IMG/VR virus record: IMGVR_UViG_3300006056_000031
Span: 1 to 15,910 of that record
Source of the DNA: a virus
Taxonomy: Duplodnaviria > Heunggongvirae > Uroviricota > Caudoviricetes
Strand: one strand, 5' to 3'
Length of the DNA: 15,910 bases
The notes beneath the pieces are model-generated. The model was not told the DNA's origin. It ran no database searches and was given only the letters and a program-made list of their open reading frames with translations. The translations under genes and the position numbers were made by a program. Positions 1 through 13,113 of the stretch are shown here, one piece after another (positions within the stretch are counted from its first letter, which is position 1; each line of letters begins with the position of its first letter).

Positions 1-1
1 C

Positions 2-103
2 TGCTAACGATTTGCAGCTTGGCGTTCGGTTTTTGGCTTACCGAAATGTTCAAGTTTACCACAATACTAATAGCCAAAAACTGACGCTAAGGTGCTGTTA
101 TAG
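2..103. repeat. attC-like hairpin site 1
   Basis: TGCTAAC (2-8), 5-nt spacer GATTT, left arm GCAGCTTGGCGTTCGGTTTTTGGCT (14-38) complementary to right arm AGCCAAAAACTGACGCTAAGGTGC (72-95) with one extra T in the left arm, then T-GTTATAG (97-103). Confidence 0.85.
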
Positions 104-148
104 CCAGTGCTTTTAATGGAATTATTAACAATTAAACAAATATAAAAA

Positions 149-547
149 ATGGAAAAGATTTTAAGAATTGAAGAAACAACCTTCAAAAAAACAAAAGACG
201 ATTGGCAATCATTTGAAGGTTTCCAAATCATAACGGATTTACAAACTATCCAAATTGGAATTAGCAACGGTCAATCTTGTTGTGAAAATTTTGGATGTAT
301 AATCACCAACGATGAAACCAAAGAATTTATTGGTGCGGAATTAAAGTCATTGGCAATTGTTGATAATGCCTTGAATAATAAAAAGATTGAAGAATTGGAA
401 TATTTGGATAGCGGTGGGGCAATGTTTGTAAATCTTGAAACAAGCGAGGGTTTACTTCAATTCGTTGCCTATAATGCACATAATGGATATTACGGACACG
501 AAGCAGTTTTAGTCAGCAAGCAACTTAATCATGAAGAGGGTCTTTAG
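149..547 (+). CDS. Cassette ORF, hypothetical protein (132 aa, QSCCE motif)
   Basis: ORF with A-rich leader; bounded by inverted repeats 97-110 and 547-560. Confidence 0.85.
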   Translation: MEKILRIEETTFKKTKDDWQSFEGFQIITDLQTIQIGISNGQSCCENFGCIITNDETKEFIGAELKSLAIVDNALNNKKIEELEYLDSGGAMFVNLETSEGLLQFVAYNAHNGYYGHEAVLVSKQLNHEEGL

Positions 548-553
548 CATTGG

Positions 554-685
554 CTATAACGTTATTCAGCTTGTAGTCAGGCGTGGAATAGAAGCGTAAA
601 TTTTCGGATTAGAAACAAGTATTAAAAAACACGCAAGCGATTGGATAAAGCCTAAAGCCACGCTTGCTACAAACTGATGTTAGGC
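554..685. repeat. attC-like hairpin site 2 (132 bp)
   Basis: CTATAAC (554-560), spacer GTTAT, arm TCAGCTTGTAGTCAGGCGTGG (566-586) pairs with CCACGCTTGCTACAAACTGA (658-677) with one extra T, then T-GTTAGGC (679-685). Confidence 0.85.
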
Positions 686-686
686 G

Positions 687-908
687 ATGTATTTTATTAT
701 GAGTATTTTAGAAGCAGGAACAGAAATTAAAGAAAAACCAACAGTAGGTCAAGAATTTATGGAATGGGCTGAACAGTATTGGTTATTAGACAAATTAGTT
801 AAAATTGAAAAACCTGACGAGTTTGCAGGAGAAAAATGTGATTATGATTATATGCGTAATATTTTCATTGAAAAGATAAACGGAATTATTAAAGACAGGT
901 TGGGTTAA
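687..908 (+). CDS. Cassette ORF, hypothetical protein (start 687 or 699)
   Basis: 73 aa ORF bounded by inverted repeats 679-693 and 907-921; no recognisable domain. Confidence 0.75.
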   Translation: MYFIMSILEAGTEIKEKPTVGQEFMEWAEQYWLLDKLVKIEKPDEFAGEKCDYDYMRNIFIEKINGIIKDRLG

Positions 909-914
909 TATATC

Positions 915-1046
915 GCCTAACGATTCTCGGCTTTGTTTAGTGCGGGATTATGAAAACGAAATTATCAACTTAAAAATAAATTACAATGGAAAAAGAAAAT
1001 TTGAATGAAGCAGAAAAACCCGCATTGAACAAAACCGATGTTAGCA
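915..1046. repeat. attC-like hairpin site 3 (132 bp)
   Basis: GCCTAAC (915-921), spacer GATTC, arm TCGGCTTTGTTTAGTGCGGG (927-946) pairs with CCCGCATTGAACAAAACCGA (1019-1038), then T-GTTAGCA (1040-1046). Confidence 0.85.
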
Positions 1047-1177
1047 GTAGTGCCAAACGCAGAAATGAAATAACAAAGATACTATATCGAAATTCAACTG
1101 ATGATTCAGAGTGTATGAGAATTAGATTTGAGGACATTCAAAATATAATTGACTTGCTGAATGATTTATACGACTAA
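986..1177 (+). CDS. Cassette ORF, hypothetical protein starting inside hairpin site 3
   Basis: ATG 986 lies in the hairpin loop after an A-rich leader; the right arm and core encode PALNKTDVSSSA; stop abuts inverted repeat 1178-1192. Confidence 0.7.
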   Translation: MEKENLNEAEKPALNKTDVSSSAKRRNEITKILYRNSTDDSECMRIRFEDIQNIIDLLNDLYD

Positions 1178-1185
1178 GGCATTAC

Positions 1186-1317
1186 TGCTAACGGACTGCG
1201 TGTATAAGAAGTGGCGTAGAACTTACCAAAACATTACAAAAATTAACGAATTATAAATTAATAAATAACCAATCCAAAAATGCCGATAGTAGCCATTTTT
1301 TATACCCGCTGTTATCT
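1186..1317. repeat. attC-like hairpin site 4 (132 bp)
   Basis: TGCTAAC (1186-1192), spacer GGACT, arm GCGTGTATAAGAAGTGGC (1198-1215) pairs with GCCATTTTTTATACCCGC (1292-1309), then T-GTTATCT (1311-1317). Confidence 0.85.
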
Positions 1318-1346
1318 TTCAGTTGCGGGTTTTAAAACAAAACAAT

Positions 1347-1535
1347 ATGACAGTAAAAAATCTAATTAAGGAACTTCTTGATTATAATATGGATGCAGAA
1401 GTTCAAGTAATTGCACATTGCCAAAAGTATGATTATAGCATAACTATTGGAGGTTCAGAAGGAGTTGAAAAGAACAACACTAAAGAAGTTTCTTTTTATG
1501 TTGATGAATTGTGTAATAATGAAAATATAAATTAA
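1347..1535 (+). CDS. Cassette ORF, hypothetical protein (MTVKNLIKELLDY...)
   Basis: ATG 1347 after an A-rich leader is preferred over the TTG at 1323, which lies inside the inverted repeat. Confidence 0.75.
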   Translation: MTVKNLIKELLDYNMDAEVQVIAHCQKYDYSITIGGSEGVEKNNTKEVSFYVDELCNNENIN

Positions 1536-1536
1536 A

Positions 1537-1713
1537 ATGAAAGTTAATAAATTGGAAATTGGTAAAAACTATTACCATGGTAATTGCAAAAAGAAATTTA
1601 AGTGTGTAGAATTAAATACAAACATTGATGAAAACCAATCTGATTTTGTTGATTATAAAAAAACATTACACAGGTTTTACAATGACGATATGTACTTAAA
1701 TAAGCAAATGTAG
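1537..1713 (+). CDS. Second ORF of the last cassette, hypothetical protein (58 aa; absent from ORF track)
   Basis: Manual translation MKVNKLEIGKNYYHGNCKKKFKCVELNTNIDENQSDFVDYKKTLHRFYNDDMYLNKQM*; starts 1 nt after the previous stop, and its TAG overlaps inverted repeat 1713-1727. Confidence 0.7.
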   Translation: MKVNKLEIGKNYYHGNCKKKFKCVELNTNIDENQSDFVDYKKTLHRFYNDDMYLNKQM

Positions 1714-1720
1714 CAATTGA

Positions 1721-1778
1721 AGATAACTATTATATATACGCAACTTTTTATAAAACATCAATTATCAATAAGTTATAT
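1721..1778. other. Integrase-proximal att-like site without hairpin (candidate attI equivalent)
   Basis: AGATAAC (1721-1727) ... GTTATAT (1772-1778), only 58 bp, no long internal stem, ends 1 nt before the integrase ATG at 1780. Confidence 0.55.
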
Positions 1779-8865: not shown

Positions 8866-9030
8866 ATGAAAGCAAATCTGTATTTAATAGCTCTAAGCAT
8901 CGTATTGTTACCAGCAATATATTTTATAAACGACGGTGAAAAACACTGGACCCAATTAATCCCTCTTGGATATTTAGCATATTCGTTTATAGTTGGTACG
9001 ATATCAGCAATCAGAGGAAATAGAAAATAG
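8866..9030 (+). CDS. Small two-TM membrane protein (54 aa; absent from ORF track)
   Basis: Manual translation MKANLYLIALSIVLLPAIYFINDGEKHWTQLIPLGYLAYSFIVGTISAIRGNRK*; A-rich leader; fills the intergenic gap. Confidence 0.75.
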   Translation: MKANLYLIALSIVLLPAIYFINDGEKHWTQLIPLGYLAYSFIVGTISAIRGNRK

Positions 9031-9034
9031 AAAT

Positions 9035-9502
9035 ATGCTCTATAGAATAAAAATAGGATCTCATGGGAGTTCATGGATACCTTCTATTACTTTTAGAGAA
9101 TCTATATCAGGATCTTTTTCCTTCCTTGGTGATTTTGAATATGTTATAGATTCCCAGGAGGACACTAATAAGTTAGTAGGGCTTTCCGATGGATGGACAC
9201 ACCACAAAAATTCGATAAGAATAGGATGGAGATGGAATAATGGACTGGAGTTAATGACCATAGTCTATAGGAATGGGGTAAGAGAAATAAAGTCGATGGG
9301 CTACATTGAAGCGAATAAGAAATATAAGTATCAGATACAAATTTTTGACGACTTTTATGGAATAAAGGTAACATCAGGAGATACCACATATGCGGAGCTA
9401 CTTGATAGATCCACAAAATGGAATTTCATAAGGGTTATACTAAAACCTTATTTTGGTGGAAAAAATAAAGCACCTAAGAGTTTTGATATATTGCTAGATT
9501 AA
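9035..9502 (+). CDS. Hypothetical beta-rich protein
   Basis: ATG 9035 follows the previous stop; aromatic beta-strand pattern (SIRIGWRW, PYFGG). Confidence 0.75.
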   Translation: MLYRIKIGSHGSSWIPSITFRESISGSFSFLGDFEYVIDSQEDTNKLVGLSDGWTHHKNSIRIGWRWNNGLELMTIVYRNGVREIKSMGYIEANKKYKYQIQIFDDFYGIKVTSGDTTYAELLDRSTKWNFIRVILKPYFGGKNKAPKSFDILLD

Positions 9503-9508
9503 AAAATC

Positions 9509-9814
9509 ATGGGAGAAATTAATATAGACGGAAGAGTCCTTAAGTACCAATTGATGGGTGACTGTAGTGAATATGATTCATGGGAATGGACTGAATTTTA
9601 CGAGGGAACAGAGACAGTAACCAAAAGAGTAAGATCCGGCTGGTTCGATTTATTTGGTACGAGAGTACAAGTTGAGGAACCGAAGCTGGTCTTTACTATA
9701 AACATGTCTTGTGAGAATGTTAGAATAACTAAGGGGGAATGGAGAAAAAGAATACTAAGAGAATTAGCTCTTCTTAATAGGAGAGGGGAATTAGAAAGGG
9801 GAGAATTAATATGA
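9509..9814 (+). CDS. Hypothetical protein
   Basis: 101 aa ORF; stop overlaps the next ATG (ATGA). Confidence 0.75.
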   Translation: MGEINIDGRVLKYQLMGDCSEYDSWEWTEFYEGTETVTKRVRSGWFDLFGTRVQVEEPKLVFTINMSCENVRITKGEWRKRILRELALLNRRGELERGELI

Positions 9815-9852
9815 AAGAACTATTTTTATTAAGAGGATTACCAGGAATTTAA
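9811..9852 (+). CDS. 5' fragment of split AAA_33/N4BP2-like P-loop kinase (MKELFLLRGLPG)
   Basis: ATG AAA GAA CTA TTT TTA TTA AGA GGA TTA CCA GGA ATT TAA gives the beta-strand and first half of a Walker A motif. Confidence 0.85.
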   Translation: MKELFLLRGLPGI

Positions 9853-9853
9853 C

Positions 9854-9872
9854 GATATATACTATATAAATA
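9854..9872 (+). promoter_or_regulatory. GATATATA plus TATAAATA, candidate late promoter for the inserted endonuclease
   Basis: GATATATA 9854-9861 and T4-late-type TATAAATA 9865-9872 upstream of ATG 9886. Confidence 0.4.
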
Positions 9873-9885
9873 TATTTAATATCTA

Positions 9886-10761
9886 ATGGAAGCTTTTTTT
9901 AAACAATGTCCTTCATGTAATTGTAGAATGGAATATAAGCAAAAATATTCACTAAATTATTCTATCAAGCATAATAAATTATGTAGAGCATGCTCTGCTA
10001 AAAATGCTGCATCTATTTTTCCGGATAGGGGTTGGAAAAAATTGAATGATGATGTTAAGTCTGGAAAAAAACCAAATGGATTTAAAGATAAAACGCACAA
10101 CAAAGATGCTAAATTAAAAATGTCTCTTGCTGATAAATCATATACTAAGACCATTAATTTTAAAAAAACCATGTCTAACGTAACTTCTGGTAAAAATAAT
10201 GGGATGTATGGTAAATCTTTCTATGATAGTTGGGTTGATAAATATGGTGAAAAAATTGCAGATTTGAAATTAATCGAGCATAAAGCTAAACAATCAGTTA
10301 ATAGTTCAGGTAAAAAAAATGGTATGTATGGTAAATTATCTCCGATAGGTAGCGGTAATGGATGGTCTGGATGGTACAAAGGATGGTTTTTTAGAAGTTT
10401 ACTAGAATTATCATATATGATAAACGTGATCGAAAGGTTTAATTTGGAATGGAAAAATGCTGAATATAAAAAATATACAGTAGAATATTTTAATGATGAT
10501 GTTTGCAGGACTTATAGAGCGGATTTTATAATTGAAGACAAATATATGGTTGAGGTTAAACCAAAAAAATTACACAATTCATACTCTGTAATTTTAAAAA
10601 TGGAAGCTGCTAAGTTATGGTGCATTAAAAATAATTTTGTATACAAATTAACAAGTTGCCCAAAATTATCAGATAATGAAATTTTAAATTTAATAGAAGA
10701 TAAAAAAATAATATTAACAAATAGATATAAAACAAAATTTGATGAGCAATTTAAAAAATAG
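9886..10761 (+). CDS. Putative homing endonuclease: CxxC zinc ribbon + NUMOD3-like repeats + TnsA-like PD-(D/E)xK domain
   Basis: CPSC...CRAC; GKNNGMYGK/GKKNGMYGK repeats; RSLLE...YRADF...VEVKP...KMEAAKLWC. Confidence 0.8.
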   Translation: MEAFFKQCPSCNCRMEYKQKYSLNYSIKHNKLCRACSAKNAASIFPDRGWKKLNDDVKSGKKPNGFKDKTHNKDAKLKMSLADKSYTKTINFKKTMSNVTSGKNNGMYGKSFYDSWVDKYGEKIADLKLIEHKAKQSVNSSGKKNGMYGKLSPIGSGNGWSGWYKGWFFRSLLELSYMINVIERFNLEWKNAEYKKYTVEYFNDDVCRTYRADFIIEDKYMVEVKPKKLHNSYSVILKMEAAKLWCIKNNFVYKLTSCPKLSDNEILNLIEDKKIILTNRYKTKFDEQFKK

Positions 10762-10799
10762 TAGCCCTCGCAAGGAACTTTTCCTTTTACGAGGGCTAC
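10761..10799. other. Strong RNA/DNA hairpin at the 3' end of the insert
   Basis: GTAGCCCTCG (10761-10770)/CGAGGGCTAC (10790-10799) perfect 10-bp stem enclosing AAGGAA-CTT-TTCCTT. Confidence 0.8.
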
Positions 10800-10810
10800 C
10801 GTAACCAGGA

Positions 10811-11176
10811 GCTGGTAAAACAACATTAGCTAAAATGTTAGTTGGAGAGAAAGACTATTGTCACAAAGAAGCTGATATGTATTTCATGGATCCCTATGGT
10901 AATTACAGATTTAATACTATGGAGTTAAAAGATGCTCATAAATGGTGTCAGGATGAAATGGAGTTTGTTATGACATATGAACATTCACCTGTAGTGGTAT
11001 CAAACACATTCACGCAGGAATGGGAAATGCAGCCATACTATGATTTAGCAGAAAAATATGGATATCGGGTTCATTCCTTGGTTATCGAAAATAGACACAG
11101 TGGCATCAATTCCCACGGTGTTCCCGATGAAACGCTGGAGAAAATGAAAAATAGATTTGATTTAAAACTCATATAA
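10811..11176 (+). CDS. 3' fragment of split AAA_33/N4BP2-like kinase
   Basis: AGKTTLAKM...EADMYF...VVVSNTF...HGVPDETLEKMKNRF; the frame is closed upstream by TAA at 10802-10804. Confidence 0.85.
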   Translation, partial: AGKTTLAKMLVGEKDYCHKEADMYFMDPYGNYRFNTMELKDAHKWCQDEMEFVMTYEHSPVVVSNTFTQEWEMQPYYDLAEKYGYRVHSLVIENRHSGINSHGVPDETLEKMKNRFDLKLI

Positions 11177-12327: not shown

Positions 12328-13113
12328 ATGCCATATAAGAAAATATCGGGGATTTATATTATAACTAATACTATAAACGGTAAGGTTTATATTGGTAGTG
12401 CAAAATCTATCTTTAAAAGATTGCATCGTCATAGATACATGTTGGATAAAAATAGGCACACGAATAGACATATGCAATCATCATATAACAAGTATGGATC
12501 TTCTAGCTTTACTTTTGAAATAGTTGAGATAACAATTCTTGATAAAAAAATAATGGAGGATAGGGAGGAATTTTATATATTATCATTTAGATCAAACGAT
12601 AAAAAATTTGGTTATAATAAAAGATTAGATTGTAGAACAAACCTGGGAATTAATGCATCCGATGAATCAAGAGAAAAAATGAGGATTTCTCATATTGGAA
12701 TTAATCAAAGCAGTGAAGCAAAGAAAAAAATAGCAATTTCGCGATATAAGGAGATCTATAAGCTAGATTCTTTAGGAATTATACTTTGTAAATATGATTC
12801 TATAATTTCAGCTTCCTCTGAAAATGATATATGTAAACAGTCCATTTCTTCTGCTTGTATAGGAAAAATCCCACATGCTGGAGGATATTATTGGTCATTT
12901 GTTGATTGTTATGATGCATCAGATGAATTTGGGGAGATAAAAAGAACATATAAACAAAAAAAATTCATTTATAAAAATACGAAAACACTTGAAACGTATA
13001 GTAAATTGTGCGAAGTTGCAAAGATTCTTGGTAAGACCAGTTCCAATTTAACTAACGCATTTAATGGGAGAATTAAAAACAATACAAAATTTATAAGATA
13101 TGAAAGAGAATAA
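12328..13113 (+). CDS. Free-standing GIY-YIG homing endonuclease with NUMOD3/NUMOD1-like DNA-binding modules
   Basis: SGIYIITNTINGKVYIGSA, R..H, FTFEIVE, YN motifs; SDESREKMRISH and KEIYKLD...YWSF modules. Confidence 0.9.
   Translation: MPYKKISGIYIITNTINGKVYIGSAKSIFKRLHRHRYMLDKNRHTNRHMQSSYNKYGSSSFTFEIVEITILDKKIMEDREEFYILSFRSNDKKFGYNKRLDCRTNLGINASDESREKMRISHIGINQSSEAKKKIAISRYKEIYKLDSLGIILCKYDSIISASSENDICKQSISSACIGKIPHAGGYYWSFVDCYDASDEFGEIKRTYKQKKFIYKNTKTLETYSKLCEVAKILGKTSSNLTNAFNGRIKNNTKFIRYERE

Follow-up and report, generated by a model that had tools for sequence, protein, structure and literature searches.

The first 1.7 kb of the DNA analysed here hold an array of small gene cassettes, separated by imperfect hairpins and ending at the gene for a tyrosine recombinase. 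The whole stretch, called the window below (15,910 nt), is the first 15.9 kb of the 79.9-kb viral contig IMGVR_UViG_3300006056_000031 and has 35% G+C. All hairpins share one layout and read AAC, then 5 unpaired nt, a ~20-bp stem, a large loop, a single base and GTT. Four of them lie in the window, and a scan found none elsewhere in the 80-kb contig. The cassettes span 150–550 nt; one open reading frame (ORF) matches DUF7448, and their cargo otherwise gave no matches. The original prediction, made from the letters of this stretch, held that each cassette is bracketed by its own private inverted repeat of 14–16 bp, as a signature of units that had existed as circles, and the paired ends lie in these first 1.7 kb. 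Completeness of the contig is estimated at 30%, and its 79.9 kb contain no terminal repeat, so the array cannot be traced around a circle. The parts of the array are given below with the evidence for them in brackets; X2 is a sequencing run from another study.

1–8, + strand: right-arm end CTGCTAAC of an upstream cassette, cut by the contig start (sequence; X2 has other DNA before position 5)
6–99, + strand: hairpin site 0, made of AAC, a spacer of 5 nt, an imperfect stem, a loop, the other stem strand, 1 nt and GTT (scan, fold)
97–111, + strand: left arm (R') of cassette 1 (repeat finder)
149–547, + strand: ORF of cassette 1, 132 aa, DUF7448 (array-borne homologues retain paired ends)
546–560, + strand: right arm (R'') of cassette 1, with TAAC, the putative crossover point, at its end (repeat finder, X2)
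558–681, + strand: hairpin site 1 (124 nt), assigned to cassette 2 (scan, fold, X2)
679–693, + strand: left arm of cassette 2 (repeat finder)
687–908, + strand: ORF of cassette 2, 73 aa, with no family match
907–921, + strand: right arm of cassette 2 (repeat finder)
919–1042, + strand: hairpin site 2, assigned to cassette 3, with an ORF start at 986 in its loop (scan, fold, X2)
1040–1054, + strand: left arm of cassette 3 (repeat finder)
986–1177, + strand: ORF of cassette 3, 63 aa, starting inside the hairpin loop
1178–1192, + strand: right arm of cassette 3 (repeat finder; X2 joint from 1188 to 557 within TAACG)
1190–1313, + strand: hairpin site 3, assigned to cassette 4 (repeat finder, fold)
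1311–1326, + strand: left arm of cassette 4, with one extra T
1347–1713, + strand: two small ORFs of cassette 4 (1347–1535 and 1537–1713)
1713–1727, + strand: right arm of cassette 4, the last cassette
1725–1745, + strand: attI-like insertion site, AAC followed by TATTATATATA (conserved ~50 nt before the integrase start in >55 related loci)
1780–2583, + strand: tyrosine recombinase, 267 aa, Xer/IntI-like, lacking the segment specific to integron integrases

All four inverted-repeat pairs were recovered where the prediction had placed them. A repeat finder returned 97–111/546–560, 679–693/907–921 and 1040–1054/1178–1192 as 15-nt arms that are 93% complementary, and the fourth pair lies at 1311–1326/1713–1727. 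The predicted count of one mismatch per pair, with one indel in the fourth (an extra T), was right; overlooked was that the mismatch always falls at the same place. In every window pair a left-arm G stands opposite a right-arm T at the eleventh position from GTT/AAC, making a G·T pair on the + strand and a C·A pair on the − strand. The right-hand repeats begin at or in the stop codon, as predicted, for the ORFs ending at 547, 908, 1177 and 1713. With GTTA/TAAC taken as fixed, we estimate the chance of at least 10 of 11 further matches at ~1e-5 per pair; it was seen in four of four.

The relation extends to relatives of the recombinase, of which one viral collection holds 227. We fetched 80 of these loci (61–88% identity, on contigs of up to 362 kb) and took end statistics over 335 sites and 263 cassette pairs from ~75 related phage arrays. 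The claim that the two ends of a cassette match each other while the two flanks of a hairpin do not was borne out by covariation across these cassettes and sites. The left arm and the reverse complement of the next right arm agreed at 66–100% at positions 1–10 and 12–15, falling from position 16 to about 40%, near background. Past GTTA/TAAC, from position 5 outwards, the sequences on either side of a single hairpin agreed at 26–55%, equal to random pairs. Over positions 5–15, cassette ends gave a mean of 7.8 matches out of 11, against 3.9 for flanks of the same hairpin and 3.85 for random pairs (cassette ends versus same-hairpin flanks, Mann–Whitney p = 2e-59), with the measured complementarity lowered by sites that the scanner misses. 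Position 11 agrees in 6% of cassettes, with T in the right arm at 96% of sites and G in the left arm at 71%. The remaining mismatches are biased in the same direction: 122 would be G·T on the + strand versus 50 on the − strand. The position-11 T/G presumably has a role of its own. The repeats are private in that positions 5–10 and 12–15 vary and covary, and shared in their loose outer consensus, which for the left arm is roughly GTTAT.....AGT, and in the fixed T/G at position 11.

Homologous ORFs lacking paired ends had been named in advance as the observation that would speak against the claim. The DUF7448 homologues that are borne on arrays, at loci L167 and L168 (80–81% identity) and L176 (52%), keep such ends: their arms differ from those of the window, each set is self-complementary, and position 11 carries G/A. 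More distant DUF7448 homologues sit in ordinary phage gene contexts and have no such ends. The prediction thus withstood this check. Compared with window 97–560, the proteins at these three loci are up to 81% identical and most of the variable arm positions differ; either arm sequences change far more quickly than the DUF7448 gene does, or this gene has been repackaged more than once. Among 15 homologous cassette pairs, the only clean case of compensatory change was one pair with two changes, most 'single' changes in this comparison being missed sites or chimeric cassettes.

We also found 12 units that carry arms and no ORF. They have the form GTTA-N5-TCGTTTTAATG-N5-TAAC, comprise five different arm sequences, almost all complementary at 9 of 9 positions, and sit inside arrays as well as directly against the attI-like site (L004:5920–5948, L008:348–376, L027:5927–5955, L006:5616, L015:2944, L020:2329 and 2720, L071:2136 and 5622). 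The 11-nt TCGTTTTAATG between their arms is also the loop of the 45-nt hairpin class. Such units could be empty cassettes or cassette precursors.

Circularising each cassette in silico and folding the junction, the check proposed with the prediction, extended the hairpin of the window cassettes by a stem of 15–16 bp. The joined molecules have this stem unbroken below AAC/GTT, then a 4-nt bulge on the AAC side and the inner stem. Across 257 cassettes the mean folding energy of the + strand was −22.1 kcal/mol at the joined circle ends, compared with −15.7 kcal/mol in its array context; circularisation brought a median gain of 7.5 kcal/mol and improved 227 of the cassettes. In 249 of the 257 the + strand was more stable than the − strand, and a single strand would presumably fold in this way in vivo. 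Of the predicted circle signature, the covarying ends, the extended stem and the presence of the same cassettes elsewhere stood up, and the circles themselves we infer as probable intermediates.

The prediction had also asked whether the same ORFs with the same repeats occur in other arrays. They do: another metagenome and other phages have them in a different order and in different surroundings. High-scoring segment pairs between arrays mostly consist of hairpins alone, which form shared families; those that contain an ORF start at TAAC, take in a hairpin and that ORF, and stop at the following AAC. Positions 583–1542 of L019, for example, equal 2634–3593 of L035 at 99.9%, both ending in ...TATAAC, after which one sequence continues as a hairpin and the other as the attI-like site, and L035 1553–1827 against L058 4004–4280 breaks at AAC in the same pattern. 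At the right-hand breakpoints the sequences have just TAAC in common, so assembly chimeras at repeats cannot explain them. One cassette lies mid-array in one phage and at the attI-like site in another.

Contigs assembled from run X2 rearrange the window's own cassettes. One of them joins a foreign cassette, window 917–1188, window 557–922 and a foreign hairpin; the joint falls within TAACG, so cassettes 3 and 2 stand there in reverse order. Cassette 1 (5–563) has foreign DNA on both sides in this run, and a different cassette abuts the ATAAC that precedes TATTATATATA, next to an integrase region without differences over 878 nt. Several joints in X2 that skip sequence, with sides of 20–26 nt inside repeated hairpins, were excluded from use. 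Among cultured phages, snork9-1 and filifjonk9-1 differ by a block of four small genes with its own hairpin, placed immediately after ...TTATAAC. From these breakpoints we conclude that crossover probably takes place at the bulge-side AAC, that each hairpin goes with its downstream ORF, and that cassettes would enter at the integrase-adjacent slot. Judged by the same alignments, the unit is a hairpin plus its downstream ORF, cut at AAC, not an ORF plus its downstream hairpin; with the hairpin belonging to the downstream ORF, the ORF of cassette 3 can start at 986 in a hairpin loop.

Three further observations concern these units. In filifjonk9-1 the four-gene block (L001:5934–6700) has the left arm GTTATAGGC and a non-matching right arm GCGGTTAAC, precedes a hairpin of which just the 5' half is present, and looks like a fusion at a shared CTGTTTTT stretch, not a site-specific event. 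Cassettes that are 99.7–99.9% identical and have different upstream neighbours have one of their few differences in the 5-nt spacer that follows AAC (L019:583–590 versus L035:2634–2641, GTCTG/GTATG; L019:55–62 versus L036:3367–3374, GTCCG/GTCTG), which may reflect strand exchange or the mixing of repeated hairpins during assembly. In run X3, from wastewater and likewise available as assembled contigs only, the summed contig depth over window 1–100 and 950–1320 was 500–2400 over hairpins versus 3–6 over ORFs; many other genomes in that sample therefore share the hairpin families.

The last right arm ends at 1727 (...GATAAC) and is followed by TATTATATATA without a hairpin, with the recombinase start 52 nt past AAC. 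A motif of AAC followed by TAT(N)ATATAT recurs ~50 nt before the integrase start in >55 loci. It has the placement of an attI, beside the integrase and where new cassettes would enter, and its sequence suggests that function. Downstream of its recombinase gene, locus L080 has a second hairpin run and a second attI-like motif (8904–10895, with ATAAC and TATTATATATA at 10895). The recombinase itself scores below cut-off for both relevant families, with 167.7 bits against 220 for XerA_Arch (NF040815) and 156.9 bits against 265 for TIGR02249. The latter match comes in two pieces, 6–180 and 254–312 of 315 positions, leaving 181–253 unmatched. Aligned with VchIntIA (2a3v), residues 174–209 of the query (36 aa) stand opposite 176–259 (84 aa), so ~48 residues are absent, which we take to be the region of the integron-specific I2 segment. 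The additional domain that marks IntI, in the I2 helix region, is accordingly missing, and the closest solved relative by sequence is archaeal XerA (4a8e, E = 3.5e-30). This enzyme would be the one that acts on the sites beside it.

Nearly all of the 80 loci with enough upstream DNA have a hairpin array of the same polarity upstream of the recombinase and co-directional with it; hardly any sites were seen on its downstream side or on the opposite strand. Arrays of at least 13 such sites also occur in cultured virulent Flavobacterium phages (Muminvirus, Lillamyvirus); several DNA methyltransferases are among their cassettes, and no integrase is annotated. Recombinase homologues with 45–51% identity and a longer N-terminus occur in Bacteroidota genomes (Flavobacterium, Aequorivita, Seonamhaeicola and others). 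There they are followed by arrays with the same polarity of AAC plus 5 nt, covarying ends of 10+3–4 bp and T/G at position 11. The hairpins of these bacterial arrays are on the strand opposite the ORFs, which are co-directional with the recombinase (L131:6800–12440, L105:6780–11190, L091, L149 and L160). The asymmetry therefore follows the DNA site and not transcription or mRNA, and since site polarity is kept while the ORF strand is opposite, the phage cassettes are gene-inverted relative to the site. A prophage inserted in a host attC, which would have left the second half-site elsewhere, was considered and rejected, as the 80-kb contig has no further sites and the layout is conserved in ~70 loci.

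We consider it likely that the paired ends are the outer 15 bp of a mobile cassette recombination site in a phage-borne, integron-like system. This is supported by covariation, by the asymmetry of the strands, by units that break at AAC, by an integrase-side slot whose content varies and by the conserved architecture. A cassette would consist of a hairpin, a left arm, an ORF and a right arm ending in TAAC. In the array, the hairpin would stand between the right arm of the preceding cassette and its own left arm, which pair only at TAAC/GTTA. Excision as a circle would bring the cassette's own two arms to either side of its hairpin, where they would pair into a stem of 15 bp that has G·T as its eleventh pair and is continued by a 4-nt bulge on the AAC side and the inner stem. 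This folded junction would be a full-length two-arm substrate on the coding (+) strand, to be bound by shape and cleaved at AAC by the neighbouring 267-aa Xer/IntI-like recombinase. The circle would then be joined to the AAC that precedes TATTATATATA, just upstream of the recombinase gene, and new cassettes would therefore enter beside the integrase.

To a more specific version we give an even chance. It holds that a minimal Xer-like recombinase without the I2 helix would carry out integron-type single-strand cassette recombination in phages and Bacteroidota. A long sequence-free R stem of 15 bp, an invariant T·G one helical turn from the cleaved AAC and the AAC bulge would set the choice of strand and site in place of the extrahelical bases read by the IntI domain. 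The phage polarity would be flipped with respect to the genes, with the hairpin in front, transcription towards the integrase and entry at the 3' end of the array.

Several points weigh against an integron-like cassette site. The extra bases lie on the cleaved arm, unlike those of classical attC. No free circle or circle-junction read was seen in the run data, which consist of assembled contigs. On the left-hand side, the breakpoints are at the starts of repeated hairpins, where a metagenome assembly could be chimeric, and the filifjonk9-1 block, with its non-matching arms and truncated hairpin, shows that illegitimate rearrangements also occur. Finally, the use of folded attC by integron integrases relies on the very segment that is missing here (PMC4792948).

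The alternative that fares best is that the arms pair in cis within a single-stranded array, the ORFs being looped out and the branched junctions presenting the sites for excision. It fits the covariation as well as the circle model does, the cassettes of the window are short, and the ORF-less units are evidence that two arms can make a hairpin by themselves within arrays. Loops of several hundred nucleotides would be entropically costly, however, and cis pairing alone leaves unexplained how insertion happens at the attI-like site, a step that calls for a free cassette whose site is complete. We regard it as rather unlikely to be the answer, and the two models are not mutually exclusive.

It is improbable that the classical polarity applies, with the − strand folding, crossover between G and TT, and each hairpin belonging to the ORF upstream. 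Stop codons do abut the AAC side as in classical attC, the 5' arm on the coding strand is longer, like a classical top strand, and in cultured phages a methyltransferase cassette and hairpin Z occur together before different cassettes. Against this, shared cassettes end at AAC and then continue into divergent hairpins or the attI-like site, no hairpin follows the last cassette, the ORF at 986 starts in its upstream hairpin, and the + strand is the better folder in all but eight of the 257 cassettes.

A role of the stems in mRNA, whether in processing, stability or insulation of ORFs, is less probable still. It would account for the coding-strand bias through G·U pairs, the more stable strand being the coding strand and the fixed mismatch becoming G·U in RNA. 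The Bacteroidota arrays, however, have the same polarity and the position-11 T/G on the strand opposite the ORFs, and both the AAC breakpoints and the adjacent recombinase would be left unexplained. A terminator scan found no terminator-like sites in the window, so the hairpins are not intrinsic terminators. An Rfam search of the window gave zero family matches. Chance matches or terminal inverted repeats of small transposons, which have in their favour just the general resemblance of inverted ends around an ORF, are practically negligible given the pattern in all four window pairs and 263 cassettes elsewhere, arms that differ between units unlike those of a transposon family, and the lack of a transposase in the window.

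Downstream of 2583 the window has genes typical of large T4-like phages, among them a Dda-like helicase, an RNA ligase, a phosphoesterase and GIY-YIG endonucleases. Early genes there include a GIY-YIG homing endonuclease (12328–13113) and a second endonuclease-like ORF (9886–10761), followed by an AAA_33 kinase-like fragment (10835–11176).

In the accepted view of integrons, the IntI-specific domain lets a tyrosine recombinase use folded single strands, and cassettes carry their attC trailing. The array described here would belong to a widespread phage platform with neither property, represented by 227 recombinase relatives in one viral collection plus the Bacteroidota arrays. The covarying 15-bp ends and the fixed T/G are mutable features with which shape recognition by such an enzyme could be probed. 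ORF-less units, shared cassettes and fast-evolving arms bear on the unsolved origin of cassettes, and the system may offer a route for the exchange of methyltransferases and small early genes among large and small Flavobacteriia phages.

The likeness to integrons is broad. Both have small promoter-poor ORFs in arrays with imperfect hairpins between them, invariant AAC/GTT, crossover at the AAC of the folded strand's 5' arm (here as proposed), an insertion site that adjoins the recombinase gene, and cassettes whose two ends are mutually complementary without being complementary to the neighbouring cassette. The folding strand reads array, attI and integrase in sense, which is the order on the bottom strand of a classical integron. 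Taking an attC-type site as an imperfect hairpin with AAC/GTT, classically 57–141 nt long, four sites in the window and 335 in relatives qualify; relatives have size classes of ~45, 85 and 122 nt, the shortest below the classical range. That the ends of a cassette match while the array holds a hybrid R box is an established integron property, the R box changing at each integration (PMC4792948), and the principle is known. As a control we parsed, anchored on motifs, one integron in phage Va_90-11-286_p16 (MK672802), named as a canonical Vibrio-type chromosomal integron (PMC9892861). Complementary ends, by which R''/R' is restored in the circle, were found there as here: its six cassettes with adjacent attC sites have ends complementary over 8–13 bp with no mismatch at a fixed position. 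The original prediction that the repeats are about twice as long as those of classical cassettes was thus overstated; at 15 bp they are longer, not double.

The differences from classical cassettes are the 15-bp length, the fixed T/G, the bulge by the cleaved AAC, a gene polarity that is reversed, and the enzyme. The recombinase lacks the ~48-aa IntI-specific segment. The R stem has 15 bp with T/G fixed at position 11, and a 4-nt bulge beside the cleaved AAC contrasts with two extrahelical bases on the opposite arm; the role of the I2 helix and of those bases was described by Escudero et al. 2016 (PMC4792948). Classical cassettes place the ORF before its attC and antisense to the recombined strand, whereas here the ORFs are on the better-folding strand, so that the hairpin heads the cassette instead of trailing it. 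The element is, moreover, carried by large lytic-type phages.

As the adjacent recombinase fails the IntI test, the window array would count as a group of attC sites without an integron integrase (CALIN) under the IntegronFinder definition (at least 2 attC, no integron integrase nearby). Qi et al. 2023 reported such integrase-less clusters, along with cassettes for methyltransferases, in phages that are virulent, among them a Polaribacter (Flavobacteriaceae) phage, and recombination of phage attC sites by IntI1; a non-IntI recombinase, an attI-like site, reversed polarity and extended covarying ends were not described for them (PMC9892861). Our scan of Polaribacter phage P12002L gave a few scattered weak sites of the present type.

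A looser analogue is found in the PeSL cassettes of T4-type phages, for which minicircles have reportedly been seen and whose promoter or terminator motifs are thought to act through homologous recombination; we know of no report of an AAC/GTT core, a dedicated tyrosine recombinase or covarying private ends in them. Here too, T4-like phages shuffle small ORFs of a novel kind as units with stem-loop motifs at their borders (Arbiol et al. 2010; Comeau et al. 2014; PMC2839356, PMC4122927). Our literature search found no paper on a Xer-like recombinase with such arrays, an attI-like site or covarying ends.

The attP hairpin of CTX phage is recombined by XerCD as a folded strand. The parallel is that an enzyme of the Xer type, lacking the I2 helix, works (here as proposed) on a folded single strand mimicking a two-arm site; the CTX case is also mentioned in PMC4792948. 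In CTX, one genome is integrated at dif, with no arrays of exchangeable cassettes bearing private arms. The Xer/dif site has ~28 bp, made up of two 11-bp arms and a 6–8-bp centre, and the folded site predicted here would give two arms but has a bulge at its centre.

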